From: Spirochaetia bacterium
GTDB lineage: Bacteria > Spirochaetota > Spirochaetia > DSM-2461
Direction: 5' to 3'
Length of the DNA: 64,000 nt
Assembly: GCA_963668315.1 (NCBI GenBank)
Contig: OY764216.1
Coordinates: 2,656,001-2,720,000 of the forward strand
Part shown: positions 2,639 to 43,780 of the stretch, piece by piece
Layout of the letters: every line of letters begins with the position of its first letter
Numbering within the stretch: the stretch's first letter is position 1
The notes under the pieces: generated by a model
What the model was told of the DNA's origin: nothing
Databases searched by the model: none
Seen by the model: only the letters and a program-made list of their open reading frames with translations
Made by a program: the position numbers and the translations under genes

Positions 2639-2644
2639 GGCTCT

Positions 2645-3379: not shown

Positions 3380-4608
3380 TGTTCCTATTCTTTGACATCA
3401 ATTCGTTCTTAGACCGCTTTTCTATTCAACGGATTCAGAAGATTTCTTGTCCAGTGAGCTTTCTGAAAATCCGTAAGATACTCCATAAAATCCTCTTCTC
3501 TTTTTCTGCATCCATGGAACACCTCGTTAATTATCTCCCAGTTTTTTTCCGGTGTAAAACCGGCAGCGTGACTATGTGTAAGGTATTTTCTGTTCCTTTT
3601 ATTTATTCGAAAAGGTTTAAGGAAATTATGCCAGAAGCAGTAGCAGGAAAATCTGTCCATACTGTTATTCATATTTCTTCCAAACTGAACCGTCTCCCGT
3701 ATATATTCGGCTAAATCCTTTCTTATCTGTCTGTCTATATAGTTGCAGGGAAATAATTTGTTTTGATAATTCCGTTCTATTCGGGAGTTCGTCCTTCTGT
3801 GGCGTATTTTGTGTGAAAGAAATTCGTATTGTTCAAACTGATGGCGATAGATGGGGTGTTCATCCGTATCAAGAATAACTGAGGGCAAGGAAGATTTTTC
3901 TGATTTTTCCGAAAGAAAGCGCAGTATCTCCCTGAAACTCCGGGAGGCAGCTCCCTTCTCAAACAAGGCTGATTCATAGAGCTCTGATTTTCTTTTTTTC
4001 TGTTCTTCTGTGCAGGCTCCCTTACGTTTAAAGTGGTAGGCATTGAAGGTGTAGATAAATTGGGATCGTTGACCGGCCAGGATATTTACATTGGTCGGGA
4101 AATACTGGGAGAGAATGAAGTTTTCCAACCCGTCGGCGGCCACCGATTCACTGAGCTCCAAATCATGGATTTCCTTAGGACATACAGAAGTTATTCTCTT
4201 CGACAGACGTTGAATGCGGTTCGTGATGATACTGGGGGAGGAATGCATGGCCCGCGCCATATCTCTGATGCCTGAACCGCTGACAAGATGGTTCAGAAGG
4301 GTGGGGTAAGAAAGCTTCTTGTGAACATAATGGTCTATTGTGAAATAAGATAGAGAGAATGTGGATAAACAGTCCTTGCATTGATAACGTTGAACCATAC
4401 CATCCCTCTTTGTTTTTACAAAGCCCTTCTTACGTATCCAGGAATTGCTTTCAGATGTATGAGGATGATTAACGCACTTCGGATTAGGGCAGTATATCTG
4501 ATTGGACAATGTGAATCTCCTTCTTTCAAGTCACTAATAGAAGGGAGGATTTTTTTAGGGGAAAACCCAATATTTCAGAAAATTATGTCAAACCTTTGTG
4601 ACATTACC
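3375..4608 (-). mobile_element. IS1/IS1595-like insertion sequence with imperfect terminal inverted repeats
   Basis: AT-rich block. Left end TAATGT-N8-TTTGACAT (3377-3398); right end read inward GGTAATGT-N8-TTTGACAT (4608-4585). GGTAATG is the IS1-type terminus. No target duplication seen. Confidence 0.7.
3409..4509 (-). CDS. IS1-like transposase (Zn ribbon + HTH + DDE-like domain), single ORF
   Basis: CPNPKC...QRYQCKDC InsA-like zinc ribbon; HTH (GIRDMARAMHSSPSIITNRI); acidic motifs ADGLE and DTDEHPIY. Confidence 0.75.
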   Translation of the reverse strand: MSNQIYCPNPKCVNHPHTSESNSWIRKKGFVKTKRDGMVQRYQCKDCLSTFSLSYFTIDHYVHKKLSYPTLLNHLVSGSGIRDMARAMHSSPSIITNRIQRLSKRITSVCPKEIHDLELSESVAADGLENFILSQYFPTNVNILAGQRSQFIYTFNAYHFKRKGACTEEQKKRKSELYESALFEKGAASRSFREILRFLSEKSEKSSLPSVILDTDEHPIYRHQFEQYEFLSHKIRHRRTNSRIERNYQNKLFPCNYIDRQIRKDLAEYIRETVQFGRNMNNSMDRFSCYCFWHNFLKPFRINKRNRKYLTHSHAAGFTPEKNWEIINEVFHGCRKREEDFMEYLTDFQKAHWTRNLLNPLNRKAV

Positions 4609-4650
4609 CGATCAGTTGATTCACCCGCTAAAAACGGCTATTCTATAGGC

Positions 4651-8597: not shown

Positions 8598-9960
8598 GAT
8601 ACTTATTGTTGATGACGAGAAAAATATCCGCGTGGGACTGGGAAAGTCACTGGAGATGGAAGGCTACGAGATCTATCTGGCGGAAAACGGCAATGAAGCC
8701 ATGAAGGAGATGCTCAGGACCAGTATCGATCTGGTTGTGACTGACCTGAGAATGCCCGGCATGTCCGGGGAGGAACTTCTCAAGAAGCTGACGAATGCCT
8801 ATCCCACGGTTCCGGTGATTATCCTGACCGGACACGGTACGGTGGAGAATGCCGTGGACGCCATGCGCAACGGCGCCTTTGATTTTCTCACCAAGCCGGT
8901 GAATCTGGACAGACTGGGTCTGCTGGCCAAGCGGGCTCTCTCCAACCGTAAGCTGATTGTGGAGCACCAGGCCCTCCAGAAAGAGGTGGAGAGGCTGGAG
9001 AAAAAAAAGAACCAGGCCATTATCGGACGGTCCAGCGCGCTGAACCGGGTTCTGGAACTGGTGGAGCAGGTCGGGCAGACGAAGGTATCCGTTCTGATAA
9101 CCGGAGAAAGCGGTGTGGGTAAGGAGCTGGTGGCCGACGCCATTCATAACTCCTCTCCCCGTAAGGATAAACCCTTTATCAAAGTCCACTGCGCCGCCCT
9201 GACCGAATCCCTCCTGGAGAGCGAACTGTTCGGCCATGAAAAGGGAGCCTTTACCGGGGCGTCGGCCCAGAGAAAGGGCCGGTTTGAACTAGCCGACGGA
9301 GGGACCATTTTTCTCGATGAAATCGGCGAGATCAATCCTTCCGTGCAGATAAAAATCCTCCGGGTTCTCCAGGAGAAAACCTTCGAGCGGGTGGGAGGGG
9401 AAAAAACAATCTCCGTGGATACCCGTATCATCGCCGCTACCAACCGGGATCTGAAGGAAGAGGTGGAAAAGGGCAATTTCCGGGAAGATCTTTACTACCG
9501 GCTGAACGTGGTCAATATCCATGTGCCCCCCCTGAGGGAGCGCAAGGACGATATCCCCCTCCTGGCTTCGGCCTTTCTGGAACAGTTTTCCGCGGAGAAT
9601 GAAAAGGCCATCGAGGGAATTGAGAACAAGGCTTCCACCATGCTCTATAATTATAACTGGCCCGGCAACATCAGGGAACTGCGCAACTGTATGGAGAGCG
9701 CGGTGGTGCTCTGCAAGAAACATATCATCGGACCCGACGATCTTCCCCCCGGAGTCCGCACAAATGAAGAAGAGGGGGTTATCCGCATCGAACTCGGCAC
9801 ATCCATGGCTGAAGCGGAGAAAATCATAATCCGGCAGACCCTGAAAGGGGTGAACAATAACAAGAGCCGGGCTTCGGAAATCCTGGGCATAGGAAGAAAG
9901 ACTCTGCACAGGAAAATCCATGACTACGGTCTGGAGGAGGAGTTTCTGACCCGTGGATAG
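8587..9960 (+). CDS. sigma54-dependent response regulator (Rrp2/NtrC-like)
   Basis: Receiver domain (DLRMP), GESGVGKE, GAFTGA, FLDEIGE, WPGNIREL, Fis-type HTH. Confidence 0.96.
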   Translation: MTFKILIVDDEKNIRVGLGKSLEMEGYEIYLAENGNEAMKEMLRTSIDLVVTDLRMPGMSGEELLKKLTNAYPTVPVIILTGHGTVENAVDAMRNGAFDFLTKPVNLDRLGLLAKRALSNRKLIVEHQALQKEVERLEKKKNQAIIGRSSALNRVLELVEQVGQTKVSVLITGESGVGKELVADAIHNSSPRKDKPFIKVHCAALTESLLESELFGHEKGAFTGASAQRKGRFELADGGTIFLDEIGEINPSVQIKILRVLQEKTFERVGGEKTISVDTRIIAATNRDLKEEVEKGNFREDLYYRLNVVNIHVPPLRERKDDIPLLASAFLEQFSAENEKAIEGIENKASTMLYNYNWPGNIRELRNCMESAVVLCKKHIIGPDDLPPGVRTNEEEGVIRIELGTSMAEAEKIIIRQTLKGVNNNKSRASEILGIGRKTLHRKIHDYGLEEEFLTRG

Positions 9961-9972
9961 AAGGGGATCGCA

Positions 9973-12312
9973 GTGAAAGGATTTCTTCTGACCCATGAGT
10001 ACCGCGATCAGGGCGGACAGGTGCAGATTCACCTTCACGGGATTGGTGAAGACGGTCCTTTTCTGATTATCGTGGATAATCAGAAGCCACTGTTTTTCAT
10101 TAAGCGGCAGTCCGTTCTCCCCGATGGTCTGAAGGTTCTGAGAAAACCGGTGGAGCTGACGACATTTTTCCGGCAACCGGTGGACTGCCTCTATTTTTCC
10201 TCCAAAAGCGACTATTTCAGCGGGAGGGATCTCCTTAAAAACAACGGCGTTTCCCTGTACGAGTCCGATGTGAGTCTTCCCGAGCGTTTCCTTATGGAAC
10301 GGTTTATCCGGGGGGCGGCGGAAATCGAAGGGGAGGGACGCCTCCAGCCCGTACGGAACGGGAAGGGGGAGCTTCTTGTCTTCCGTAATCCCAAAATCCG
10401 ACCCCTTACCTACAAGCCCGATTTTCGTCTGCTCTCCCTCGATATCGAAACGGGCCAGCGGGGGGAACTCTACTCCATAGCCGTTCAGGGAACGGGCAGG
10501 GGCGTACCGCCCGAGATGGGGCGCGAAGGGGAGACCCGCTGTTTCATGGCCGATGACGTCCGGGATGAGAAGATCATACTGACCGATTTCCTGGACTGGT
10601 TCGCTTCCTTCGATCCGGATATTATCATTGGCTGGCATGTCATCGGCTTTGATCTGATGTTCCTGGAAAAAAAGTGCCGCGAGCACAATATTCCCTTTGC
10701 CCTGGGCCGTCAGGGAGAGACTCCCTTTCTCTCCGAGAAGCGTTCGGGCATCTATTCCGCTTCCCTTTCCGGCCGACTTGTTATCGACGGCCCTCCGACC
10801 TTGAGAGCGGCCTTTTACAAGTTTGAGAATTACAGCCTCGAAACGGTGGCTCACGAACTTTTAGGGAAGGGGAAGGATATCCGTCCCGACGAAGATAAAA
10901 TCGCCGAGATAGAGAGGCGTTTCCGGGAGGACAAGGAGGCTCTGGCCCGGTATAATCTCGAAGACTGCGTACTGGTCACGGATATTTTCTCCCGAACGGC
11001 GATTCTTGATCAGCTGGTGACCCGTTCGCTCATTTCCGGTATGGCCCTTGACCGGGTCTCCCTGTCCGTTGCCTCCTTTGACTTCTTCTATCTCCCCCGA
11101 CTCCACCGCAAAGGCATGGTCGCTCCCGATACGTCGGATATCGTTTCAGGAGACCAGGCCGCGGGGGGCTACGTTTTCTCTTCCGATGCAGGCCTCTATG
11201 AGTACGTGGCGGTGCTTGACTTCAAAAGCCTGTACCCCTCCATCATAAGAACGTTCCATATCGATCCCTGGTCGCGGCTGAACAGCGGGAAAGATCCCTT
11301 GAGCACTCCCACGGGACTGGTCTTCTCACGGACCGAAGAGATCCTTCCCGATTTTCTGGAAGAGCTGATGGAGATCCGTGCCCAGGCGAAAAGGGACGGG
11401 GACGATCATCTGTCACAGGCGGTAAAAATCCTCATGAACAGCTTCTACGGCGTGATGGGGACCACGGGCTGCCGGTTTTACCACGCCGACCTTCCCACGG
11501 CCATTACGGGCACGGGTCAGTGGATTCTCAAGGAGAGTTCGGCCTACCTCAGGGAACGGGGATACTCAGTCATCTACGGCGATACGGACTCCCTCTTCGT
11601 CTGCCTCTCCGAGCATCCTGAGTATTCCCATGAAGAAGAGGCGGCTCGTCTAACTGCTGATATCAACAAGTACTGGGCTGAACGGCTGAGAAAGGAGTTT
11701 GATCTGGAATCCTACCTGGAATTGGAATGGGAGAAGCTCTACCGCCACTTTCTCATTCCCCCCATCCGGGGCAGCCGCGAGGGAGCCACCAAGCGGTATG
11801 CGGGAAGAAAGACCGACGGCACCTTGGAACTAAAGGGGCTGGAGTTCGTCCGCAGCGACTGGACCGCCTTGGCGAAAAGATTTCAGTATGAGTTGTTCGA
11901 ACGATTCTTTGATCTCCAGGAAAGGGAAAAGGGTACGCCCATGGAAGAAGAACGGCATGAACTCAAAATGTGGGTCCGCCTTTTTGTGGAGGATATCAAG
12001 GCGGGTCGATTTGACGGAGAACTGGTCTATAAGCGGCGGTTAACGAAGAAGACGGAAGGATATACTAAGAGTACTCCTCCCCACGTGAAGGCTATACGGA
12101 TGCTTGACGACGCTGGTATCGTGCACGGGCGGGATGTGGAGTACGTGATGACCCCGGCCGGGCCTGTCCCGTTGCAGCTGAACCCGGAGGAGCTGGATTA
12201 CAACCACTATCTGGAAAAGCAGATCGTCCCCCTGGCGGATGGGGTTCTCTTTGCCCTGGGGCTGACCTTTGACGGGATAATCGACGGGGAGCAGCTGGAT
12301 TTGTTTGGGTGA
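9973..12312 (+). CDS. polB: DNA polymerase II (family B)
   Basis: Exonuclease motifs DIET, FD, YNLED; polymerase motifs DFKSLYPS, KILMNSFYG, YGDTDS; C-terminal clamp-binding QLDLF. Confidence 0.95.
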   Translation: MKGFLLTHEYRDQGGQVQIHLHGIGEDGPFLIIVDNQKPLFFIKRQSVLPDGLKVLRKPVELTTFFRQPVDCLYFSSKSDYFSGRDLLKNNGVSLYESDVSLPERFLMERFIRGAAEIEGEGRLQPVRNGKGELLVFRNPKIRPLTYKPDFRLLSLDIETGQRGELYSIAVQGTGRGVPPEMGREGETRCFMADDVRDEKIILTDFLDWFASFDPDIIIGWHVIGFDLMFLEKKCREHNIPFALGRQGETPFLSEKRSGIYSASLSGRLVIDGPPTLRAAFYKFENYSLETVAHELLGKGKDIRPDEDKIAEIERRFREDKEALARYNLEDCVLVTDIFSRTAILDQLVTRSLISGMALDRVSLSVASFDFFYLPRLHRKGMVAPDTSDIVSGDQAAGGYVFSSDAGLYEYVAVLDFKSLYPSIIRTFHIDPWSRLNSGKDPLSTPTGLVFSRTEEILPDFLEELMEIRAQAKRDGDDHLSQAVKILMNSFYGVMGTTGCRFYHADLPTAITGTGQWILKESSAYLRERGYSVIYGDTDSLFVCLSEHPEYSHEEEAARLTADINKYWAERLRKEFDLESYLELEWEKLYRHFLIPPIRGSREGATKRYAGRKTDGTLELKGLEFVRSDWTALAKRFQYELFERFFDLQEREKGTPMEEERHELKMWVRLFVEDIKAGRFDGELVYKRRLTKKTEGYTKSTPPHVKAIRMLDDAGIVHGRDVEYVMTPAGPVPLQLNPEELDYNHYLEKQIVPLADGVLFALGLTFDGIIDGEQLDLFG
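11422..12312 (+). repeat. copy 1 of an 891-bp diverged direct repeat (polB 3' end); copy 2 at 24346-25236
   Basis: Same length and colinear codon by codon; by hand count 31 differences in the first 180 nt. Confidence 0.95.
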
Positions 12313-12636
12313 ATGGCAAAAGTTGACGGTTGAAGGCGGTTGGATTAAATCTGAATAATATTAGATCGTTCCGGCCTTGGGGGTATAAGGCCGTCCTGCA
12401 TTCATCGGTTGAAAATGGCAGGGTGCGCCACTTAGCGGAATGCCTGAAAACAGGGAAGGTTGCCCATAAGCCTGGTATGTTATAATGTAAAGTTTAATTA
12501 TATTGAATAGAAGGCGGCTTATGTTTATGGATGGCTATATGGCTCAGACCTGCCGATTCCATAAATTTCTTTATTAAGAGTTAATGCTTCTTAGCTCCCT
12601 AAGCTGTCGTTATGGCATCTTGTCTCCTCCTTTCTG

Positions 12637-14061
12637 TCATCTGCCTGCCGCGTATTCCAGAATCCCGTCAGTAAGCATTTCGGCCTGTTCCTCCCGGAGG
12701 TTCGGATCCCTGATCGCCCAGCAGTTTCTCTTAAAGTAGAGGTTTCTCGTCTCGATCAGCGCGGCCGCATCGGCCGGGTTATCCCGAAGTACGCAGACGT
12801 TTTCCTCGTGGGAAAAGGCGTTCAGCCCCAGCTTGGAAGCAAGCGTCTCCGCCAGGGATTCCGATCTCTGCTGTTCCCCGTCGTCAGAGCCGTAGTAAAG
12901 AACAGCCGTCCCCTCGGGAAGATTGGGGGAATTGTCCGCATGGATGCTCAGGTAAAGGGATTTTTGTCTTGAAGACCTTCTCAGGTACTCCCCGGCCAGG
13001 GTTTTTCTCATTTCAAGACCCTTGTTTGTTCCAATGGGCCTGAAATCATCGCTCCCCGGAACATTTACCGTATTGTATACTTCGTTTTTCTGATGGGGAA
13101 AGGTCAGTCCCGGTGTCCCGTTTCTGACAATATGATTGGGGCTTATCACCGTCAGGTGTACCTCCGCGCCGTGAAGCTTCAATAAGCGGTACAGCCTCAG
13201 GGCCGTATCGTAGGCGTATTCATCCTCCACTACAAAAATTGGACGTCCCAGGCCGTCTTCTCCAGAGACAATGGCTCCGGAGTCATAACCCCCGTGACCG
13301 GGATCCAGAATAATTGCCCAGTCTTTCAGTTCGCTCCCCCTTTTCGGTAAAGCGGATATTTGCCGGTCATAGGATTCCAGCAGTTCCCTGGCCTGGGAGT
13401 AATCCTCCCTTATGGATTGAGTGGGCATTTCATAATAGTTAAGGCTCTCCTGACGATCGCCAGCGGGAACCTGGTAATAGTACTCATCCGAGGCCCGGTT
13501 ATCGGCTTGAACGGTCCTTTTCTCTATTTCTGCCGGTTCATCCGCTGTAGGCGGTTCCAGGCACAGACTCATTCCCACGCGGATATTTCCGGAGGCAAGA
13601 TTATTCCACTCCTTCAGTTCGCCGATTCCTATATCGTACAGGAGTGATATCCAGGACAGGGTGTCCCCCTTCTCAACGGTATAAGTTTCTCCCCGCCTGG
13701 GAATTCTGGGCAGATAAATCGTCTGACCGATGTTTATTTCCATCTTTTCCAGTCTGTTGATTCCCATGAGCTTCTCCACGGAAACATCGAAGGCATAGGC
13801 CAGGACCGACAAAGAATCTCCCGGCATGACCGTATATTCTCTCTGTTCCCTGCATTCGGGAATTATCAGTTTCTGCCCAGAAGCTATGGAATCCTCTTCT
13901 AGATGATTTATCACCATAATCCTGTCAAGGGATATATTGAAATTCGAAGATATGCCGGACAAAGTGTCATATTTTTTTACTTCGTAGCTGAGACTGTGGG
14001 CCTCTATCAAGGGAAAAATGACGAAGAGGATGATTCCGATAAGGGAGCTGAACCTGACCAT
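12637..14061 (-). CDS. secreted LysM x3 N-acetylmuramoyl-L-alanine amidase (Amidase_3)
   Basis: Signal peptide; three Y-x-V-x-x-(G/Y)D-(T/S)-L LysM repeats; ILDPGHGG, E, SIHAD, LIE zinc-amidase motifs. Confidence 0.9.
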   Translation of the reverse strand: MVRFSSLIGIILFVIFPLIEAHSLSYEVKKYDTLSGISSNFNISLDRIMVINHLEEDSIASGQKLIIPECREQREYTVMPGDSLSVLAYAFDVSVEKLMGINRLEKMEINIGQTIYLPRIPRRGETYTVEKGDTLSWISLLYDIGIGELKEWNNLASGNIRVGMSLCLEPPTADEPAEIEKRTVQADNRASDEYYYQVPAGDRQESLNYYEMPTQSIREDYSQARELLESYDRQISALPKRGSELKDWAIILDPGHGGYDSGAIVSGEDGLGRPIFVVEDEYAYDTALRLYRLLKLHGAEVHLTVISPNHIVRNGTPGLTFPHQKNEVYNTVNVPGSDDFRPIGTNKGLEMRKTLAGEYLRRSSRQKSLYLSIHADNSPNLPEGTAVLYYGSDDGEQQRSESLAETLASKLGLNAFSHEENVCVLRDNPADAAALIETRNLYFKRNCWAIRDPNLREEQAEMLTDGILEYAAGR

Positions 14062-14064
14062 GAA

Positions 14065-15225
14065 TTATTCCCTGGTTCTGATTGTCAGAACGCGATTTTC
14101 AAAGGCGGCGCGTGTTGGGAATTCGGTGTAATGCCTGGGCTGATCGGTACTGATCTCCGGGTCCCAGATGAGAAAATCCCCCGAATCATCCAGCTCCGGA
14201 TTCAGATACCTCACATGTTCTCCCAGGACCATTCCCCTTTCATTGATTTTGGGGCCCCAGCGGGTCGGATGTCCTATAACCCAGATGATCGCTCCCAGAA
14301 AGGATTCGTCATGGAGGCACAGGTCTTTCAGTTCCCCATCGCTCAGAATCTCCTCCCTGATCTCGTAAAGGTCATCCTTGCCGTTAAGGGAGAGCCAGTA
14401 CTCCAAGCTATCCTTGACTACCGGGGGATGGGCACCATAATTATCCCACAATATCTCCCCGTCCTTTCCCCTGCGTCCCTGGTCTATATTCGTGCAGACG
14501 AAGGTCGTCTCCGGATCAAAACCCTTCGGCATCCGGTCCAGGATTGTATCCTCATCCTCTTCAATGTCCGCCATAGCGAGGAAAAGGCGGATCAGGGCGG
14601 CTTCGCAGCTTAGGACATGCTGTTGATAATAGCTCTGGTGGTTATGTGTAAGCCAGTCTGCGGCATCTTTTTTTTCCGTTATCGGAGGATGGGGCAGCCA
14701 CTCCTCCCCCGGGGTGATCCCGTAAATGTGGAGGATCGATCCGGAAGGGACGTTCTCGTAAAACCATTGTGCATCCTCCACGGACAATCGTATGCAGCCA
14801 TGGGAGGACGGTCTGCCCAGAAGTGTTTCCTGTTCGTGAATGACCACCCGATCTTCTGTCATGGGAACGGAGTGGAAAAGATAAATACCCCCGATGAACC
14901 CTACCCAGTATTCCGCCCCTTCATGAAATGTCTTTGAGAAAAACCATTCACCCCGTTTCTTTCCGCTTTTATCAATTATAAACCGGCCGGTGGGCGTGGC
15001 ATTGTCAGCCGTTGGGATTCCCGAGGAGCAGACCATGGTTCTGATCATTTCTCCTTCTTTGTAGACGAAAACCCGCTGTTGTGACAAATCAACGGTGACC
15101 ACGTATTCCGTTTCCGCAAGGTTAAAAGGTGAAATGATTTTTACATCCCGATTTGACTGGCCTGTGAGAGCGGCGTATACAAAAAGAGTGAGTAGTAAGC
15201 CTGTTAGTCGTTTTATTGCTGTCAT
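14065..15225 (-). CDS. L,D-transpeptidase (YkuD) fused to a C39-like cysteine peptidase domain
   Basis: VDLSQQR, TPTGRF, FHS...SHGCIRL; C-terminal half QQHVLSCEAA / EHV / IWDP. Confidence 0.82.
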   Translation of the reverse strand: MTAIKRLTGLLLTLFVYAALTGQSNRDVKIISPFNLAETEYVVTVDLSQQRVFVYKEGEMIRTMVCSSGIPTADNATPTGRFIIDKSGKKRGEWFFSKTFHEGAEYWVGFIGGIYLFHSVPMTEDRVVIHEQETLLGRPSSHGCIRLSVEDAQWFYENVPSGSILHIYGITPGEEWLPHPPITEKKDAADWLTHNHQSYYQQHVLSCEAALIRLFLAMADIEEDEDTILDRMPKGFDPETTFVCTNIDQGRRGKDGEILWDNYGAHPPVVKDSLEYWLSLNGKDDLYEIREEILSDGELKDLCLHDESFLGAIIWVIGHPTRWGPKINERGMVLGEHVRYLNPELDDSGDFLIWDPEISTDQPRHYTEFPTRAAFENRVLTIRTRE

Positions 15226-15421
15226 TTCTACAAAAGTATTTCAAAGTAAAGGATATTAGTCAATACTAATAATGTCTGCAAAAAATAGATTAAAATAAAA
15301 AGTTTTTTAGAAAAATTTGAAAACAGGAGTGTAATATCTTAGGCTTTTGTGGGGACATTTCAAAAATGAGTACTAAAAAACATCTCAATATCGTTTATAT
15401 ACAGACAATTAAGGTAGGTAA

Positions 15422-20024
<4,603 letters not shown>

Positions 20025-20088
20025 TATGGCTTATTGAAAGGAGACCTGACCCGGGTTCGCGGGATTTACCGTCCCCGGGGGAAAAATT

Positions 20089-20505
20089 ATGAAAAGAGTT
20101 CTGCTTCTGGCTGCCGGAAATATCTCCCTCTCTCTGGGAATTGTAGGGGTTTTTCTCCCCGTTTTGCCTACTACCCCCTTTCTTCTTCTATCAGCGGCCT
20201 GCTACGTGAAGAGCTCGGAGAGACTCTACAACTGGCTGATTCATCATCCCGTTCTGGGACTCTACATACGCTCCTACATCCTTTACAGGGCGATAACGGT
20301 CAGGGCCAAGATCATCTCTATCGCAGCTCTCTGGATTGTTATCGCCTCGTCGGTTTTTTTCTTTGTCAGCCTGCTCTGGCTGCGTATCCTGCTGGCGGTT
20401 ATTGCCCTGGGGGTCACGGTTTACCTGGTTAGTATAAAGACGCTGACGAAGGATATGATGGCAGCGGACGGGGAAAGTGATCACACCGTCCCCGGAAATG
20501 TATAA
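20089..20505 (+). CDS. ybaN: YbaN/DUF454 membrane protein
   Basis: LGIVGVFLPVLPTTPFLLLSAACY..SS.RLY.WL signature. Confidence 0.9.
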   Translation: MKRVLLLAAGNISLSLGIVGVFLPVLPTTPFLLLSAACYVKSSERLYNWLIHHPVLGLYIRSYILYRAITVRAKIISIAALWIVIASSVFFFVSLLWLRILLAVIALGVTVYLVSIKTLTKDMMAADGESDHTVPGNV

Positions 20506-20533
20506 GGGAGTAGCTGTGATTATCTGGTGATGT

Positions 20534-21310
20534 ATGGAAACAAAAAAGTCGAACCAAGGCAAAAAAATCATATTTGTATACCCTCCGGAAGTGGTAAAGC
20601 AGCAACTGATGGTTGTTCTTTCGGAGAATGAATTCGAAGTCTACTCCCTGAGGGACCAGAAGAAGGTCAGGCAGATAGCCTCCGCCTACGGGGAGAGTAT
20701 CTTCTTTCTGAATCTTGACGACGGTCTGAAGGAAGATATGTGGGAGCAGTTCATTCAGAAAATCAAACTGGAGATTGCCGACCTCCAGTTAGGGCTCTTG
20801 TCCTTTAATGTATCGAGCCCGGAACAGATCCAGCATTACGTTCTTGATTATGGGGTGAACTGCGGATTTATTCAGCTTAAGCAGGGGGCTAAGGCGGCGG
20901 AGGAGATGCTGCTTAAGACTCTGCAGGTCAATGAAGCCAAGGGGCGGCGTAAGTATGTCCGGTACTCTTGCAGAGAATCGGATCAGGTTTCCCTGAACTT
21001 CAAAGTGGGAGATAGCTTCATAAAGGGGGCTATCGAGGACATCAGTTCCGTGGGGATGGCCTGCCGGATCCTGTCGCCCCAGGTTTCCCTGGTTAAAAAC
21101 CAGATGGTGCCGGATATCCAGCTGAAGCTGCGGGGGACTCTCATTCATACGGGCGGAGTTGTTCTGGGGCAGAGAAATATGCCTGATGGGACTCTCAAAT
21201 TCGTTATTCTCTTTACGGATGACAAGCTGCATAAGTCAAAAAATCAAATCCGATCCTTTATACATTTTTCCCTTCAGAAAAAATTTAATGAGGAATTCAA
21301 ATTGGATTGA
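20534..21310 (+). CDS. PilZ-domain (c-di-GMP receptor) protein
   Basis: RRKYVR (RxxxR) and DISSVG (DxSxxG) motifs. Confidence 0.85.
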   Translation: METKKSNQGKKIIFVYPPEVVKQQLMVVLSENEFEVYSLRDQKKVRQIASAYGESIFFLNLDDGLKEDMWEQFIQKIKLEIADLQLGLLSFNVSSPEQIQHYVLDYGVNCGFIQLKQGAKAAEEMLLKTLQVNEAKGRRKYVRYSCRESDQVSLNFKVGDSFIKGAIEDISSVGMACRILSPQVSLVKNQMVPDIQLKLRGTLIHTGGVVLGQRNMPDGTLKFVILFTDDKLHKSKNQIRSFIHFSLQKKFNEEFKLD

Positions 21311-21438
21311 CAGAGGGAAAACTGGATGTTTTATAGTCTGTCTTATTGATAGTAAATTATTATATAAAAAAATAAGACAAAATAATTTGCATATGCTCAT
21401 TTTCCCTTTATAATGTAAAAAAAGGGGATAAATAAATT

Positions 21439-22113
21439 ATGAGTAAATTTGTCTGTTCTATCTGCGGCTTCATATATGATGAGGCCGGCGGTTATCCCGA
21501 CGGTAATATTCCGCCGGGTACGCTCTGGCCTGATGTTCCATCTTCCTTTGTCTGCCCCTTGTGCGGCGCCTCCAAAGCGGAATTTCATGAAAGGGAGGAA
21601 GCTTCTTCCTCTCCGGCTGCTCCGGTTGATCCGGGAAGTCCCGTCGCTCTGCCGGAAGATCTCAGCTACACATCGACTGAACTGTCCGCTATATTCTCCA
21701 ATCTGGCAAAGGGCTGCGAAAAACAGTACGATCCGGAAACGGCGGAACTTTACAATCAGCTGTCATCCTATTACGGCGGAAAGTCGGAATACGGGGGAAA
21801 GGCAGATTTCGAAAGTATGAAGACTCTTCTTCAGAAGGATCTGGATACCAGCTTTTCTATTGCCAATGGGATAGCCGGCAAGAGTCATGACCGGGGATCT
21901 CTCCGTGCCCTGAAGTGGGCCGAACAGGTTTCCAAAATGATCAAGTCGCACCTGGGCCGGCTTGAATCGGGTACTCCTTCCTATATCGAAAATACCAATG
22001 TGTATGTCTGCGAGATCTGCGGGTTCCTTTTCGTAGGCGATGAAAAACCGGAAATCTGTCCGGTCTGCAAGGTTCCCAGTATGAAAATGACGCAGATAAG
22101 GAGGGGGGCCTAG
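21439..22113 (+). CDS. double rubredoxin-domain protein
   Basis: CSICG..YDEAGG..W..VP..FVCPLCG at the N-terminus; CEICG..CPVC at the C-terminus; helical linker between. Confidence 0.85.
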
Positions 22114-22114
22114 T

Positions 22115-23290
22115 ATGCATGCCGTAAGAAATATCCGATTATGTACGAAAGACTGTCTTTGTCTCTACGTCTGTCCCACCGGAGCCACCGATACGGAAAC
22201 CGGTCAGATTGATCCTGATACCTGCATCAGTGGCTGCCGCCTGTGCGTCGATGCCTGTCCTTCCCACGCCATTTCTCTGGTACCGGAGGAATTCCCCGAG
22301 CAGCAGAAGAAATCGGAAGATGTTAAAAAAGCTCTGGGTATTCTGTCCAAAAGCAAAACAGAGCAGGAAAATTTGGCCCGGGAAATAGGAAAGGCATCCG
22401 AAGATCCCCTGGTCAAACAGTTCTCGAAGGCTCTGGCCCTGTCCAACCGTGTCATGGCGGAGGACCTTTTGCGTGAAGCGGGATTCATGCTGCCCCAGAG
22501 CGGTGAAGCTCTGAATCTGATTAAAAAGCTGTCCGCTTCTGATAGCTCGGAATCTTTTCCGAGGGAAGCGGCAGAGAAGTTAATAGGGAAATTAAGCAAG
22601 AATAATGGGGAGAAGGAGAAGAAGGGAATGAAAAGATACAAATGTACAGTCTGCGGATACATCCATGAGGGAGAACTGACGGAGGACTTCAAATGTCCCA
22701 AGTGCGGCCAGCCCGCATCGGTCTTCGAACTGATTGGGGAGAATGAACCAGCTGTCAATAAATACAAGGGTACCAAAACAGAACAGAACCTGATGGAAGC
22801 CTTTGCCGGAGAGAGCCAGGCCCGTAACAAGTACACCTATTTTGCGGATATCGCTAAGAAAGAAGGGTATGATCAGTTGTCGGAAATCTTTCTGAAAACA
22901 GCTGGAAACGAGATGTATCATGCCCGGATCTGGTTTGAAGAACTGGGTAATCTGGGAAAGACGGCTGAGAACCTGCTTCATGCGGCGGAAGGCGAGAATT
23001 ACGAATGGACCGATATGTACGCCGGTTTTGCGAAAGACGCCGAGGAAGAGGGATTTCCCGAACTGGCAGCAAGATTCCGGCGGGTCGCCGCGGTAGAGAA
23101 GGCCCATGAAGAGCGCTACCGGGCTCTCCTTAAGAATGTGGAGATGCAGCAGGTTTTTGAGAAAGGGGAAGAAACCATGTGGGAATGCCGGATCTGCGGT
23201 CACCTTGTCATGGGGAAGAAAGCCCCTGAAGTCTGTCCCATCTGCAAGTATTCCCAGAGCTATTTCGAAGTGAGAAAAGAGAACTACTGA
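22115..23290 (+). CDS. rbr: 4Fe-4S ferredoxin-rubredoxin-rubrerythrin multidomain protein
   Basis: [12 protein letters not shown] / [42 protein letters not shown], ExxH pairs, CRICG..CPIC. Confidence 0.9.
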
Positions 23291-23302
23291 TTTCGCTGCT
23301 GT

Positions 23303-23335
23303 CAGAGGCTGACTTGTATATCCTTTCAGCCTCTG
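23303..23335. terminator. hairpin between convergent rubrerythrin and zupT genes
   Basis: CAGAGGCTGA...TCAGCCTCTG, 10-bp stem. Confidence 0.6.
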
Positions 23336-23341
23336 CGGTAT

Positions 23342-24160
23342 TCAGGCGAAAAGCAGCAGACTCACTGCCATCACAGCCATACCGGCGATAAGCCCCCCTA
23401 TGGCGACATGATGCTCGCCGTACTCTTCCGCCGTGGGGAGAAGTTCATCCAGGGATATATAGACCATGATCCCCGCCACTCCGGCGAAAATGAGCCCGAA
23501 GGTGGTCTCATTGAAAACGGAACGCAGGATAAAATACCCCAGGAGGGCTCCGACCGGTTCGGCCAGTCCCGAGAGAAAAGAAAGCCAGAACGCCTTTCTG
23601 CGGCTTTTCGTCGCGTAATGGATGGGCACGGAAACGGCGATTCCTTCGGGTATGTTGTGTATGGCAATGGCCACGGCAATGCTGATACCCATTGTGGGAT
23701 CGGTCAATCCTCCCATAAATGTGGCGAGCCCTTCGGGGAAATTATGAATGCCGATGGCCAGAGCGGAAAACAGTCCCATCCTCATCAGGCGCTGATCTGT
23801 CTTTTGGGAAACAGGCGTATTTTCATCTTCCAGATCTATGTTGCTGATTTCGTGGGGATTCTCGTATTCGGGTATCAATTTATCAATCAGGGCGATAATG
23901 GCAATGCCCGCAAAGAAAGCTACGGTTGTTAAAACATATCCTTTCTTTTCTCCCAGAACGTCCCCCAGGGAATCCTTTGCTTTGACAAATATCTCGATCA
24001 TGGAGACATAAATCATCACGCCAGCCGAAAATCCTAAAGCTCCGGCCAGAAATTTAGGGTTGAATTTCTTTGATAGAAAAGACATGAGACTTCCCACTCC
24101 CGTGGCAAGGCCAGCGAAGAGGGTAAGCCCAAGGGCAAACCAGAAACTACTTGATTCCAT
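23342..24160 (-). CDS. zupT: ZIP-family zinc/divalent metal transporter
   Basis: GFSAGVMIYVS, HNFPEG, HNIPEG, LSGLAEP. Confidence 0.95.
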   Translation of the reverse strand: MESSSFWFALGLTLFAGLATGVGSLMSFLSKKFNPKFLAGALGFSAGVMIYVSMIEIFVKAKDSLGDVLGEKKGYVLTTVAFFAGIAIIALIDKLIPEYENPHEISNIDLEDENTPVSQKTDQRLMRMGLFSALAIGIHNFPEGLATFMGGLTDPTMGISIAVAIAIHNIPEGIAVSVPIHYATKSRRKAFWLSFLSGLAEPVGALLGYFILRSVFNETTFGLIFAGVAGIMVYISLDELLPTAEEYGEHHVAIGGLIAGMAVMAVSLLLFA

Positions 24161-24345
24161 AAATATCTCCCTATATAGAATAATACAACAACTATAATAG
24201 GATAAAGAGATCTTTTCAATTCATTTTACTTAGGATGCTCATTGGGGTGGCGGGAGTAGATATAAACGGATACGGAGGATCTCAAGGGGCTATTCATCTG
24301 ATATGGGGATCATCTCAACATATAATTTATTGCAATGAATACTTT

Positions 24346-25236
24346 GTAAACATCCTCATGAACAGTTTCTACGGCGTCATGGGCACCACGGGGTGCCGCT
24401 TTTACCACGAAGACCTGCCCACGGCCATCACCGGGACGGGGCAGTGGATACTCAAGGAGAGCACAGCCTATCTGAAAGACCGAGGCTTTGCGGTGATCTA
24501 CGGCGATACGGACTCCCTATTTGTCTGCCTGTCCGAAAATCCGGCTGTTTCCCACGAGGAGGAAGCGGCCCGACTGACCGCCGATGTGAATAGCTGGTGG
24601 GCCGACCGGCTACAAAAGGAATTCACCCTGGAATCCCACCTGGAACTGGAGTGGGAGAAACTCTACCGCCATTTTCTCATTCCCCCCATTCGGGGCAGCA
24701 AGGAGGGGGCCACGAAACGCTATGCCGGGTTGAAAACAAACGGAGAGATAGAGTTGAAGGGGCTGGAGTTTGTTCGAAGTGACTGGACCGCACTGGCCAA
24801 GAGATTTCAGTTTGAACTGTTCGAACGGGTTTTTCGTCTTTTGGACAGAGAGAAGAAGGGAGCCGGGGAGGAGCCGCGTCACGAGCTTAAAGAGTGGATC
24901 CGCCGGTTTACCGATGATTTGAAAGAGGGCCGGTATGACGGGGAGCTGGTCTATAAAAAGCGGCTTACCAAGAGCGCCGAGGGGTATACTAAAAGTACCC
25001 CGCCCCATGTCAAAGCGGTCCGCCTGCTGGACGAAGCGGGCATCGCCCACGGCCGTGACGTGGAGTACTATATGACGCCCTCCGGCCCCGTGCCGGTCCA
25101 GCTCAGGCCTGAAGAGCTGGATTACAATCACTATCTGGATAAACAGATCCGCCCCCTGGCCGACGGTGTCCTGTTCGCTCTGGAACTGACCTTCGACGGG
25201 ATTATCCAGGGGGAGCAGCTGGATCTGTTCGGGTAG
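24346..25236 (+). pseudogene. polB: 5'-truncated second copy of DNA polymerase II (C-terminal ~296 codons, frame fully open)
   Basis: Homology to 11422-12312 starts abruptly at GTAAA(C)ATCCTCATGAAC. Retains NSFYG, YGDTDS, thumb and QLDLF; lacks the exonuclease domain and motif A; the motif-B Lys codon reads AAC. Confidence 0.88.
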
Positions 25237-26535
25237 CTATTTCAGGAAAATCTCCACTACGGGAACGGTCACAGGCGGTTTGATAACGGGCAGTTCCAGA
25301 ACTACCGAACCGGCTTTCTGTCTGACTCCGATATAACTGGCCGCTTCTTCACTCTCTTTTGCTTCGGTGAACTGTACTTCTGAGGCATCATTAAGAAGCT
25401 GGGCATATTCGATTTTTCCCACCATATCGTCCAGGTGGATATGACGGAAGGGCCAATTGAAGATATGCAGATAGAGCCTTTTCCCCTTCTGGGTATACCG
25501 GCAGTCGGCGGGGGGGGTGAACTCGCTCTGGGTACAGCCGTAGATGGCCCTGCCGTGGCGCTTGAGCCATTCCCCGTATACCTTCAGCGCTTCCAGGGCG
25601 CGGTAATCGAATTCCCCCCGGGCCGTGGGTCCTACGTTCATCAGCAGATTGCCTCCGCATGCCACGGAATTGACGAGCATCTGGATGAGCTGTTCGGGGC
25701 TTTTCCAGCTGGTTTCGTCCCGGTAATACCCCCATGAGCCTGAAAAGGTCTGGCAGGTTTCCCAGACTACCGGTTCCCCGTCCACTTTCACCCATTCCTG
25801 GGGCTGGTACTGTTCGGGAGTCTGCAGATCGCCGCCCATCTCCAGGCGGTCGTTCAGGATAATCTCGGGCTGAAGTTCCCTGATCATTTTAATCAGTTTC
25901 TCGCTCTGCCACTCCTCCTTGCCCTTTCCGGGGAATTTACCCAGGTCGGGGAAATTCTTCTTGTAGGAGAAATCGAACCAGAGGATGTCGATTTTGCCGA
26001 AGTTGGTCAGCAGCTCCCTGACCTGGCCGTGGAGGTATTCGGTATACTTCTCGATTTTCTTTGTTTTATTTTTCTCTTCCGCCTCCGGATCATTCCTCAG
26101 GGGATGAAGGGAGTCGATGGGAAAGTCCTCGTGATGCCAGTCCAGGAGGGAGTGGTAGAATCCTACTTTCAATCCCTCTTCCCGGAAGGCGTTGACCATG
26201 GGAGTGAGAAGATCCTTCCCTATGGGGGTATTGGGTGCTTTGTAATCGGTATAGGCCGAATCCCAGAGGCAGAAACCTTCATGGTGCTTGGTGGTGATCA
26301 CGAAATATTTCATGCCCGCCGCTTTGGCTGCCTTGGCCCAGGCTTTGGGATCGTAAAGGTCCGGTTCGAAGTGGTCAAAATACTTCTGGTAATCCTCAGT
26401 GGTGATCTCCTCTTTGTTCTTTATCCATTCGTGCCGGGCGGGAAGGGCATAAAGACCCCAGTGTATGAACATGCCGAAGCGGTCTTCAACAAACCATTTG
26501 GTATTTCCCTGCGTATCATTTTCCGGATGAAACAT
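25237..26535 (-). CDS. alpha-L-fucosidase (GH29)
   Basis: RFGMFIHWG, TTKHHEGFCLW, ILWFD, GGNLLMNVGP. Confidence 0.94.
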   Translation of the reverse strand: MFHPENDTQGNTKWFVEDRFGMFIHWGLYALPARHEWIKNKEEITTEDYQKYFDHFEPDLYDPKAWAKAAKAAGMKYFVITTKHHEGFCLWDSAYTDYKAPNTPIGKDLLTPMVNAFREEGLKVGFYHSLLDWHHEDFPIDSLHPLRNDPEAEEKNKTKKIEKYTEYLHGQVRELLTNFGKIDILWFDFSYKKNFPDLGKFPGKGKEEWQSEKLIKMIRELQPEIILNDRLEMGGDLQTPEQYQPQEWVKVDGEPVVWETCQTFSGSWGYYRDETSWKSPEQLIQMLVNSVACGGNLLMNVGPTARGEFDYRALEALKVYGEWLKRHGRAIYGCTQSEFTPPADCRYTQKGKRLYLHIFNWPFRHIHLDDMVGKIEYAQLLNDASEVQFTEAKESEEAASYIGVRQKAGSVVLELPVIKPPVTVPVVEIFLK

Positions 26536-26648
26536 GAATGCCTCCTGTATTATTCTTTGTTCCAGTATAAAGTCGGTGAGGGCATAAAAAAATGGAATGA
26601 AGAAAGATTCGTATTGTCTAAATCACAGAAAATAAATAAAATATACCG

Positions 26649-27485
26649 GTGAATTACCTCTCCTATCAGAATCTTATTCTGGATATATTCCTGGCAGGCC
26701 GGACAATTGTTACCGACCACTGGAAATCCTTCCGCTCCATTCACAGGGACGGTTATTCCCGCCTTTACCTCGTAAGGGACGGTCAGGGACAGATAAGGGT
26801 GGATGGACAGGAAATCATTCTGAAACCCGGAGATCTTGTGCTGATTCCCCGGGGACATCCGTTCCAGCTGGGAGAGGCGGAAGGAATGGACCATGTCTGG
26901 ATTCATTTTGACTGCAAAACAAAAGACGGGCTCCCCCTGTTCGATTTAATCACCCCTCCGCTCACACCCCGCCGTGCCGAAGATCGGGAAGCATTATACA
27001 TAACACAGATTTCTGAATTCTGGAACAGACCGGAGCATGGGGAATATCTCAATTGTCTTCCCCTGCTTAATCTTCTTCTCGTCCCCTATATAAGAGATTC
27101 CCGCTCCACCGTGCCCGTGGAGGACAGGCTCGGTGAAGGTCACTGGCTGTTTAATGTCCTTACCTATCTGAACGCCCATCTGGAGGAGGATATCCAAATT
27201 GCCGGTCTGGCCGGGGAACTGGGCTGCCATCCCACCTATCTTTCCAACGCGTTCAGTAAAAAATTCGGCTTGAGCCCCCGCAGTTATGTGGTCAAAAGGA
27301 GAATTGAGCAGTCCCAGCAGCTGCTCTGGCACAGCGATATCCCCGTGAAGGAGGTGGCGTCCCAGTGCGGCTTCGGCGATATTTACTATTTCTATCGCTG
27401 TTTCAAGAAACTCACCGGTCTGACGCCGGGAGAGTACAGAAAGGGAAGGGAACCCTATCAGTACGAGAAACTCATGTTCCGATGA
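26649..27485 (+). CDS. AraC-family regulator, divergent from the fucosidase
   Basis: Cupin N-terminus; VASQCGFGDIYYFYRCFKKLTGLTPGEYR. Confidence 0.93.
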   Translation: MNYLSYQNLILDIFLAGRTIVTDHWKSFRSIHRDGYSRLYLVRDGQGQIRVDGQEIILKPGDLVLIPRGHPFQLGEAEGMDHVWIHFDCKTKDGLPLFDLITPPLTPRRAEDREALYITQISEFWNRPEHGEYLNCLPLLNLLLVPYIRDSRSTVPVEDRLGEGHWLFNVLTYLNAHLEEDIQIAGLAGELGCHPTYLSNAFSKKFGLSPRSYVVKRRIEQSQQLLWHSDIPVKEVASQCGFGDIYYFYRCFKKLTGLTPGEYRKGREPYQYEKLMFR

Positions 27486-28269
27486 GGGCTTTGCTGACAC
27501 CCTTCAAAAAGCCTTCCATAATACGGAATGACTGCTTTTCCAAATCCTCCGGATAATCTCCGGGGGTATGCATGGTGCGCCAGCTTTCGGGAAGTTTGCC
27601 CTCTTCAAGGCTGAATCTCTCCTTCCAGCGTATCAGCGAGACCTGCAGCGTCAGGAAGTCATGGGCGAGAAATCCCAGGTCGTCGGAATATTTCTCCACT
27701 GCGGGAAGGGCTTTTCCCCGGCTGTAGGCGGGAATCAGGTCGATGACGGGACGGAAGAGTTCCTTCTCCCGGAGGGTGGCCGATCCGGTAAGCTTTTCTC
27801 TGCCCGTCGAGTAGACCATGGTATCGCCGATCCCGCACATATCCAGAATAATCATGACCGTCTTATCCAGACCGTTGTTTTTGAAGAGACGGCCCAGGAG
27901 GTAGGAACCCTGGTCGGCAGGTTTTTTTTTCCTGTCCAGTTCTTCCCCGTCGGTCAGAAGAATCTGGCAGTTATGGGTATAGCGGGCATCTTCCAGATAG
28001 CGGCAGAGCCGGAGGAGCTGAATAACGGAAGCGCCGTTATCGTTGGCACCGGGAGAGCCGGGAACCCGGTCGTAATGGGCCACAAGCGTTTTCAGGTAGC
28101 CCCGCTTATCGTAGGATTTTTCCCCTCCGGGACGGATGAGGAAATGGCGGAGTTCTCCCGTTCTGATAATGGAAGCCTCGATCTTTTCCCTGTTGAACCA
28201 ACTTTCCAGAAAAAGATAGCGGTCGCAGCCGGGGCGGCAGAATGGGAACAGATCTTCGTCTTCGACCAT
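27472..28269 (-). CDS. M28-family metallopeptidase-like protein
   Basis: VAHYD, GANDNGAS, TDGEE, LDMCG, SD, HTPGD. Confidence 0.88.
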   Translation of the reverse strand: MVEDEDLFPFCRPGCDRYLFLESWFNREKIEASIIRTGELRHFLIRPGGEKSYDKRGYLKTLVAHYDRVPGSPGANDNGASVIQLLRLCRYLEDARYTHNCQILLTDGEELDRKKKPADQGSYLLGRLFKNNGLDKTVMIILDMCGIGDTMVYSTGREKLTGSATLREKELFRPVIDLIPAYSRGKALPAVEKYSDDLGFLAHDFLTLQVSLIRWKERFSLEEGKLPESWRTMHTPGDYPEDLEKQSFRIMEGFLKGVSKALIGT

Positions 28270-28270
28270 A

Positions 28271-29386
28271 TCAGAAACGTTTCTTCAACTTTATCGCCCC
28301 CACAGGGCAAACCTCGTCGCAGCAGTAGCAGCGGATGCATTTCCCGTAATCGATGGTAACCCTTTTCTTTTTTCCTTCTCCCGTGAAGGAGAGGGCTTGG
28401 GCCGGGCAGATTTCAAGACATTTTCCGCATCTGATGCAATTCCTGTGACGGAAGAAGGGGCGGGGTACAATCAAATTCTTCAAAAGGGGTCTCAGAGACG
28501 GGGGTACCATGCCTACATACTGGGGTATCAGGGGGATCCTTTTAAAATCGCTGCAGACAAAGGAGTCCCTTTCCTCTCCCGTCAGTTCTATCTCATCGGG
28601 TGAATTGATCCAGAGGGGGCTTTTAAGCATGACGGCATGGATGGGCAGGGATGGCCCGTCGTAACCGATCAGTTCCGAAGCGGTTATATCCAGGGCCAGC
28701 AGATCGGCCGACCCCAGTATGACATTCATGGCCCGGGGAGTCCCGTTTCCCGGACCCCGTCCTTCCATGGCGATTATTCCGTCCATAATGGCGTAGTCGG
28801 CTTTCACCGTCAGGTTGAGGTCGGCAATGAGGCGGGCGAAGTCTTCCTTTTCGGGATAACGCATATGGAAGCCCGATTTACCCAGTCCCGGGATCAGTCC
28901 GAAAAGGTTCTTCATGGCTCCTGTAAAGTACATGAGCCCGTGGGTCTTCAATTTGGGAAGGGAGAAGATCAGGTCCGCCCGGGAAACTTCCCGGGTCAGC
29001 TGGAACTGTCGGTGGAGAACGGCGTCATCGCTTCCGGCCGTTTCGGTTTTGTCGAATAGAACCCATTCGGCGCCGGTTTCCTCGCACACCTGCCAGAGCC
29101 CCGCCTTCTTCGCGGCGGCCGCGGGTGATCCCACTCCGGGAGAATCCCCCACGAGGACCGAAGACGCACCGAGCTCCTTTACGAGATTGATCACTCCCCT
29201 CAGCAGTTCGGGGTGGGTGGTTACCGCCTTCTCGGGAGAACTGCCCGAGAGCAGGTTCGGTTTGAGAAGAACCGACTTCCCCTTAACATCGGGAAAATCG
29301 GTCAGGGAGGGGAGGCGGGACAGCTGTTCGGCTATCCGTTCCCTGTTGTACCCTTCGCAGCCGAGGAGAGCTACGGACTGACTCAT
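28271..29386 (-). CDS. DUF362-domain protein with C-terminal 2x[4Fe-4S]
   Basis: VLLKPNLL, TTHP, PKLKTH, KNLFG, EGRGP; CIRCGKCLEICP and CIRCYCCDEVCP. Confidence 0.9.
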   Translation of the reverse strand: MSQSVALLGCEGYNRERIAEQLSRLPSLTDFPDVKGKSVLLKPNLLSGSSPEKAVTTHPELLRGVINLVKELGASSVLVGDSPGVGSPAAAAKKAGLWQVCEETGAEWVLFDKTETAGSDDAVLHRQFQLTREVSRADLIFSLPKLKTHGLMYFTGAMKNLFGLIPGLGKSGFHMRYPEKEDFARLIADLNLTVKADYAIMDGIIAMEGRGPGNGTPRAMNVILGSADLLALDITASELIGYDGPSLPIHAVMLKSPLWINSPDEIELTGEERDSFVCSDFKRIPLIPQYVGMVPPSLRPLLKNLIVPRPFFRHRNCIRCGKCLEICPAQALSFTGEGKKKRVTIDYGKCIRCYCCDEVCPVGAIKLKKRF

Positions 29387-43743: not shown

Positions 43744-43780
43744 TTGGGGCGGCGGGGAGCGTTTAATTCTTTTTAGTGTA

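Follow-up and report, generated by a model that had tools for sequence, protein, structure and literature searches.

A mosaic polB gene and a displaced second copy of its 3′ third enclose nine accessory genes in a Spirochaetia genome

The locus described here lies in a stretch of 64,000 nucleotides of a Spirochaetia bacterium (GenBank assembly GCA_963668315.1, contig OY764216.1, positions 2,656,001 to 2,720,000 of the forward strand), which we call the window and whose coordinates are used throughout. It contains an intact polB gene encoding a DNA polymerase II of 779 aa (9973..12312, + strand), whose 3′ third (copy 1, 11422..12312, +) occurs a second time as a stop-free fragment in the same orientation (copy 2, 24346 or 24352..25236, +), with nine genes over 12 kb between the two. 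The initial annotation, made from the letters alone, had reported two colinear 891-bp copies, and both indeed align over 891 bp without a gap and contain no internal stop. Its count of 19 synonymous and 7 non-synonymous differences in the first 60 codons (34 being identical) was exact, while the accompanying estimate of about 83% nucleotide identity applies to these codons only, the full length being 75.0% identical (668/891). The complete alignment and substitution rates that it called for give 242/297 identical residues, with 124 identical, 118 synonymous and 55 non-synonymous codons (NG86 method: non-synonymous rate dN 0.13, synonymous rate dS 1.72, dN/dS about 0.08), and the longest perfect run shared by the copies is 23 bp. 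As had also been described, copy 2 begins abruptly in mid-gene, with no homology to polB upstream of its start, and its stop TAG (25234–25236) abuts the stop of a fucosidase open reading frame (ORF; 25237–26535). The start may instead be placed at 24352: the letters 24346–24351 read GTAAAC, as opposed to GTAAAA in copy 1, and convert to Asn a Lys shared by all 106 of the 120 homologues that could be scored. Either the five matching bases served to join the ends, or the change marks the onset of decay in copy 2. According to tblastn these are the only two places in the 5.62-Mb genome that match polB; none of the 25 longest inverted repeats listed marks the junctions, and the 64-kb window contains no tRNA gene.

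The full-length polB exceeds the cut-off of its family model (NF004421, 844.5 bits, cut-off 570) and has the exonuclease and polymerase motifs, with DIET at residue 157, DFKSLYPS at 416, KILMNSFYG at 485, YGDTDS at 535 and QLDLF at 774; we take these stretches to be the motifs named here and below, including motif B for the block in which the crossover falls. The protein search identified P0001 (92% identity) and P0002 (85%) as its nearest relatives, and the nearest genome records, 81% identical in PolB, belong to Spirochaetaceae/Spirochaetales. The similarity to P0001 is unevenly distributed: residues 1–483 are 97.5% identical (471/483), copy 1 only 81.8% and copy 2 89.2%, while the corresponding values for P0002 are 87.6%, 81.1% and 88.2%. 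Along the full protein, residues 1–522 differ from P0001 at 12 positions and the remaining 257 at 54 (P=1.6e-17), whereas three control pairs are even across the same break (62/522 and 33/257; 89/522 and 48/257; 100/522 and 54/257). The resident 5′ part (aa 1–478, 9973..11406, +) equals P0001 at all variable columns from 442 to 478.

The phylogenetic analysis gave the same picture. In the tree of the 5′ part the window's own polB groups with P0001 and then with P0002, while in the tree of the 3′ part, which omits three distant proteins, copy 2 forms a clade with P0001 and P0002 (support 99/98, and 99 in a repeat tree) and copy 1 falls outside. The approximately unbiased (AU) test, run with 2000 replicates, which is below the program's advice, rejected the grouping of copy 1 with P0001 (p-AU 0.009) but not that of copy 2 (0.25). 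At the sites that differ between the copies, copy 2 agrees with both P0001 and P0002 at 25 and copy 1 at 5. The nucleotide comparison with two congeners was unable to separate the copies, all pairs being about 60–90% identical per segment compared. Because of the mismatch break, the site agreements, the 3′ tree and the AU test, the working polB is, as judged from these sequences, a chimera with a foreign tail (copy 1), and copy 2 is a member of the resident clade. The proposal of the initial annotation that a foreign 3′ end had been installed in polB and the native end displaced is thus borne out. Copy 2 does not sit next to P0001 as a near twin, but forms a third branch of its own alongside P0001 and P0002.

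The position of the crossover can be narrowed down from the same comparison. The last P0001-specific residue is 478 and the first mismatch is at 523, and between them even a relative of 80% identity is identical, which bounds the crossover to 11404–11541 (+; aa 478–523), i.e. to the motif B block. Among the three congener genomes available (80–96% complete), polB was found in two (loci L030 and L032), the third being 80% complete. This block is the best-matching 120-nt segment against the polB of L030 (87%, median 72.5%), it contains the longest perfect run shared with that gene (26 nt at 11416), and it is among the top segments against the polB of L032; a recombinase in need of 25–35 identical bases would therefore be expected to start there. 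The start of copy 2 (codon 484–486) falls inside the same interval of 45 codons, about 6% of the gene; a single event would account for both the crossover and the fragment start without coincidence.

Both junctions stand in short-read assemblies. Single contigs from two runs (X2 and X3) span 8800–18499 and 19453–28700 with 0 differences, bridging 12312 and 24345, at an even contig depth across the region (57–59 in X2, 176–180 in X3); these are two runs of one sample, possibly the source of the window itself, and are not independent biological support. In a third run, from another sample, the eight listed pieces from 16524 to 28642 match exactly. The initial annotation had named the lack of sequence across 24345 as a sign of a chimeric assembly, and such sequence exists. 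None of the 15 contig joints listed connects copy 1 with copy 2. A low depth over copy 1 (0.21) in a further run, X1, reflects a gap in its sparse contigs and carries no weight here.

The cargo between the copies comprises, from left to right, a LysM/Amidase_3 protein (12637..14061, −; Pfam), an L,D-transpeptidase of the YkuD type (14065..15225, −; Pfam), a methyl-accepting chemotaxis protein (MCP; 15422..17632, +; Pfam), the catalase-peroxidase KatG (17817..20024, +; start inferred, frame open from 17547; NF011635 and TIGR00198 over cut-off), a DUF454 protein (20089..20505, +; Pfam), a weakly matching PilZ-like protein (20534..21310, +; PF07238, E 0.00088, under cut-off), a rubredoxin-domain protein (21439–22113) followed by a rubrerythrin (22115–23290; both +, Pfam and NCBIfam) and the ZupT metal transporter (23342..24160, −; NF003243 over cut-off). 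These are genus-type metabolic and envelope genes without transfer functions. Codon use in 8 of the 9 differs from that of the flanking core genes. ZupT (76% nucleotide identity to congener genome G001), the rubredoxin pair (70% to G003) and DUF454 match congeners at 69–76%, i.e. at the level of core genes, and do so at other loci. The transpeptidase and DUF454 have second copies elsewhere in the genome (73% and 72% identical, the latter at 501 kb, in a block syntenic with G001), again at a congener-level distance. Since the cargo genes and their duplicates show this level of identity, the donor fits a congener, which gives a more definite shape to the related lineage suggested in the initial annotation; the MCP and PilZ genes that it cited as fitting such a donor carry little information, the nearest records of the host being spirochaetes anyway. 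The best relative of the LysM amidase is 46% identical, with none closer among the 8000 candidates scored from a collection holding P0001–P0008, which suggests that the organisms behind these eight proteins are without the amidase, provided their genes are in the collection.

No recombinase or transposase was found between the copies, as the initial annotation had noted: the nine ORFs have no such match in Pfam or NCBIfam, and 12 of the 14 tyrosine-recombinase domains of the genome, used as queries, had no match in the cargo. The window contains none of the 14, of which the one closest to polB is about 120 kb away. For serine recombinases no cargo ORF had a Pfam match; a genome-wide search for them was not made.

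To the right of copy 2, outside the repeat, follow two accessory genes (25237..27485, Pfam), the alpha-L-fucosidase (25237–26535, −), whose codon use is core-like, and an AraC regulator (26649–27485, +), whose codon use is undecided. They are followed by an M28 peptidase and a DUF362 gene (27472..29386, −), which form the conserved right flank. L030 is syntenic with the window up to the polB stop, and in both L030 and L032 synteny returns at the M28 peptidase (27.5 kb, 72–74% nucleotide identity). The interval between polB and the M28 peptidase is thus a variable slot, to which the fucosidase and AraC also belong: both are absent at this place in L030 and L032, and the fucosidase query found no match in any of the three congeners. 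L030 carries there a resistance-nodulation-division (RND) efflux pair, and L032 a small nucleotidyltransferase, a second, frameshifted polB tip of 60 bp and an RlmL-like methyltransferase. The cargo-free state expected by the initial annotation, with polB directly convergent with the fucosidase, was accordingly not seen. The RND pair has a counterpart at about 1.335 Mb in G000, and right after the polB stop of L030 there is a repeated element of about 45 bp with inverted arms (12339–12390 and 12501–12550 of that locus); a 29-bp repeat behind this polB was considered as a displaced tail and rejected, as it lies past the stop and is part of the longer repeated element.

Fragments resembling copy 2 were sought at other loci. 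Of 160 related polB loci examined, 108 remained after removal of duplicates and of loci with less than 2 kb downstream, and 3 of these have a displaced polB tail. For the other genes of these loci the count is 6 of 978 (Fisher P=0.05), and it includes some pieces of paralogues. On these counts polB is at most mildly favoured, and a polB-specific excess is not established. The tails measure 60 bp (L032), 195 bp (L123) and 37 bp (L192). The fragment in L123 (4134–4330) is open, 78% identical to the 3′ end of its own polB and located 3.2 kb downstream behind nifS, nifU and a low-molecular-weight phosphatase gene; its last 42 codons show 14 synonymous versus 5 non-synonymous changes, and the L123 PolB is 55% identical to the one discussed here. 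The fragment in L032 (2661–2727) overlaps the stop of the convergent methyltransferase gene. With copy 2 included, the start points differ in four loci, which disfavours one fixed attachment site, although later trimming may have occurred. Two short polB 5′ pieces lie 8.6 kb upstream of the full gene in L050 (1310–1354 and 1409–1468) and may be a mirror scar, and a 248-aa protein on an 11.5-kb contig (P0122), close to the PolB of L032, begins just before YGDTDS and is perhaps another displaced tail. A metagenome scan with copy 2 yielded, among the best 80 of 407 loci, none above 56% identity, and a scan of viral contigs gave 19 loci, all 25–33% identical, and no carrier of a close polB tail.

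Copy 2 is likely to be a young relic and not a working gene. It lacks the exonuclease domain and motif A and retains YGDTDS and QLDLF. At otherwise invariant columns it has 4 private changes, one of them at the junction, compared with 4–6 in seven working proteins, and this absence of an excess indicates that the displacement is young, in keeping with the recent event envisaged in the initial annotation. As 4.1% of substitutions create a stop, its open frame limits neutral divergence since displacement to less than about 8% at 95%; counting indels would be expected to tighten this bound. The frame is open over 350 codons, 54 of them upstream of the homology, with an in-frame ATG at 24235. In the spacer at the right junction (24161..24351), which also bears the GTAAA match at the join, a scan found 4 promoter-like sites versus 1.3 in shuffled sequences, including one on each strand with 10/12 matching positions (24219–24191, −; 24298–24326, +), the latter at the edge of the cargo and aimed into copy 2.

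We read the locus, with a probability of about 0.7, as the result of a single, integrase-free and probably RecA-driven crossover at motif B, by which the polB tail of a congener entered together with the cargo and the resident tail came to lie downstream; that it was one event, that it depended on RecA, how the DNA came in and that the donor was a congener are what we infer from the arrangement. DNA from another species of the genus, bearing the polB 3′ part and the nine accessory genes, would have entered the cell and paired stably at motif B alone, where the match along the gene is best. The incoming tail would have restored the reading frame, and the resident tail would have been shunted downstream instead of being deleted; tails of 75% identity would then recombine poorly, so that the cargo would be locked in. 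Two routes can be proposed for the far end. In one, resembling homology-facilitated illegitimate recombination (HFIR), a linear donor would pair at motif B, its tail would be ligated in frame and its far end joined illegitimately to the resident strand at that same position, in this very cell, which we put forward tentatively, at somewhat under even chances. In the other, of the Rhs type, the tail and the intervening genes would have been circularized earlier and entered by one crossover, which is possible but rather doubtful. The GTAAA match, which is followed by one mismatch and can also be read as a single later substitution in copy 2, favours a join made at polB, and the origin of a circle needs such a join too; the scarcity of donor-type sequence ahead of the join favours the circle. 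The HFIR route had been proposed in the initial annotation, and the mapping of the crossover to the best-matching block agrees with it, while the resident residues that extend to about 24 nt before the junction, leaving little donor-type anchor, do not. comEC is present in the genome, a weak point, as 10 of 14 control genomes also have it.

Several observations weigh against a single crossover of this kind. Copy 2 is only 89% identical to P0001 while the 5′ part is 97.5% identical, which would require at least one further tail exchange, in the lineage of this organism or in that of P0001. Resident-type residues reach aa 478, about 24 nt before the join, which makes for a short HFIR anchor when set beside the minimal efficient processing segment of 25–35 bp given in PMC6382021; according to the same paper, Bacillus subtilis integrated only 3–4 bp at 17–23% divergence. 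The codon use of katG is core-like, and codon use cannot separate copy 1 (−0.020 ± 0.025) from copy 2 (0.000 ± 0.023). No cargo-free allele was seen among the congeners, the two with polB bearing other inserts, and no conspecific DNA was compared. Finally, run X1, from a different study, contains contigs that match six cargo pieces at 94.5–99.6% and another that matches 24722–25224 at 90%, i.e. it points to a related strain that has the cargo genes and a copy-2-like yet different tail, a combination that simple shared descent would not produce; these pieces are joined by no contig and may come from more than one source organism. The identity of the X1 contigs to the cargo climbs from 94.5% near polB to 99.6% near PilZ.

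The first of the rival explanations would divide the history into two events. The cargo would have been resident already, copy 1 would have arisen by a two-sided replacement of the tail, and copy 2 would have come with the fucosidase and AraC genes from a sister species, in DNA anchored on the M28 side and broken at its left end inside polB. Such a scenario would accommodate the nearly equal distance of copy 2 from P0001 and P0002 (89% and 88%), the combination in X1 of cargo pieces at 94.5–99.6% with a tail only 90% like copy 2, and the failure to find the fucosidase in all three congeners. However, the broken end would have had to hit by chance the same 45 codons as the copy-1 crossover, the fucosidase and M28 genes have host-like codon use while the cargo does not, and the proteins of the nearest organisms include none closely related to the amidase. 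We regard the two-event history as unlikely.

Another reading is a site-specific island with motif B of polB as its target and a replacement tail on board, whose own integrase has been lost or which relies on one supplied in trans. It would resemble islands such as e14 and phage 21, which use an integrase to insert into the protein-coding gene icd and restore it, leaving icdC displaced. As in those elements, the target is completed by a new tail, and the old one is found at the opposite end of the insertion. Integrase targets are often the most conserved motifs, and here the break is in the most conserved motif of polB, crossover and fragment start coincide within the resolution of the analysis, and the genome has 14 tyrosine-recombinase matches. 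On the other hand, neither an integrase nor a remnant of one is present in the cargo, the displaced piece is far longer (891 bp), its starts vary among loci (though trimming could explain this), phage and conjugation genes are missing from a cargo of genus-type metabolic and envelope genes, and none of the 19 viral loci carries a close polB tail. We consider such an island distinctly improbable.

Copy 2 could also have been kept for its product, either as a subunit of a split polymerase or as a thumb/clamp-binding decoy expressed from the promoter-like site upstream. The 350-codon frame with its ATG, the inward-pointing site at 24298–24326 and the retained YGDTDS and QLDLF speak for this, while the missing exonuclease domain and motif A, the invariant motif-B Lys changed to Asn, the lack of a visible ribosome-binding site ahead of the in-frame ATGs and the absence of such an ORF from both congeners with polB speak against it, and past selection in two full genes accounts for the low dN/dS; a functional copy 2 is very improbable. 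An assembly chimera of two co-occurring strains or species, suggested by a mixed sample (judged from its many foreign contigs), is hardly credible given the contigs without differences and at even depth across both junctions and the exact pieces from the third run. Direct orientation and proximity would point to an old local tandem duplication of polB, after which the copies diverged and the second lost its 5′ part; this can practically be dismissed, as it does not explain the identities to P0001 of 97.5% for the 5′ part, 82% for the attached and 89% for the detached tail, dS is near saturation, and the trees, the mismatch break and the AU test contradict it.

The single-crossover reading finds its closest parallels in the displacement of rhs C-termini, for which a circle and a single crossover have been proposed (Jackson et al. 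2009, PMC2935791), and in the type VI secretion system (T6SS) clusters of Vibrio cholerae, whose sequential displacement has been ascribed to HFIR (Kirchberger et al. 2017, PMC5361080). In those loci, an intact gene gains an incoming 3′ end, the old end lies downstream behind intervening genes, fragment lengths vary, exchange takes place within a clade and no integrase is known. The polB locus likewise has a foreign 3′ end, a 5′-truncated former end in direct orientation and variable fragments (891, 195, 60 and 37 bp). It differs in having a single-copy DNA polymerase as its target in place of a polymorphic toxin, and in that the incoming tail is a homologous, interchangeable one (81% aa) rather than a different domain. 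An immunity gene is lacking, only one orphan is present instead of a string of them, and the cargo consists of 12 kb of unrelated accessory genes. By analogy, it appears to work like the rhs displacement family without being a member of it.

With HFIR (PMC2884548, PMC6382021) the locus has in common that homology to a resident gene is one-sided and gives way to foreign DNA, that the second junction is abrupt and may involve a match of a few bases, and that a dedicated recombinase is absent. It differs in that donor homology continues past the crossover and the resident segment persists as a direct repeat, in a nucleotide divergence of 25%, above the range in which B. subtilis integrates more than a few bases, and in that little or no donor-type anchor is visible ahead of the join. 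The H47 island (PMC5426353) also has accessory genes between direct repeats and no recombinase of its own, while its repeats and those of its kin are short or near-identical and permit excision. The near-identical repeats typical of recombinase-free circularizable structures are not found at polB (75%, 23-bp longest run), nor is the integrase within or at the edge of the insert that marks integrase islands. The open-licence literature yielded nothing on polB as an integration site, on restored diverged targets, on partial duplication of housekeeping genes with illegitimate recombination, or on this architecture without an integrase.

The observation is thus real and largely as the initial annotation had it, while its interpretation is partly supported. 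As rhs and T6SS loci already show this architecture, what is surprising here comes down to size, divergence and target: the type of event is familiar, and the piece concerned is unusually long. It would be an example from nature of 12 kb gained without a mobile-element enzyme despite 25% sequence divergence, with a crossover that maps to the catalytic motif most conserved in a DNA polymerase and a chimeric enzyme that is predicted to be intact. Island finders that require an integrase or near-identical repeats would overlook the locus and trees of whole polB would mislead, while the length of the displaced tail allows the event to be dated and its direction to be read, in contrast to short scars. 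It is conceivable, though unlikely, that motif B is a recurring conserved landing pad for integrase-free circles, each made up of a polB tail and the DNA that happened to follow it, that move between species of the genus at 20–25% divergence. If so, each entry would exchange the palm, thumb and clamp-binding tail of polymerase II and add stress and envelope genes, and the displaced tails would be start points for the next circle and a silent store of tails, like rhs orphans.

A genome-wide scan of 4039 ORFs revealed 9 downstream fragments of 3′ ends, including that of polB. Three other fragment candidates, two of them among the 9, were rejected as a 47-bp perfect repeat, a 181-bp repeat and the end of a paralogue. 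The perfect 47-bp direct repeat (G000:C1, 857616–857662 and 860797–860843) ends a 191-aa ORF and lies around an 833-aa ORF, possibly a small insert. Elsewhere in the window, two ORFs have no Pfam match, one of 759 aa (887–3166, −), which is also without an NCBIfam match, and one of 478 aa (50481–51917, +). An ORF at 3409–4509 (−) resembles IS1-family transposases (NF033558, E 7e-8, under cut-off), and the stretch 4381–4650 recurs in at least 3 other places of the genome at 80–95% amino acid identity. A tandem repeat of 94 bp with 85% identity is found at 43557–43650 and 43659–43752.

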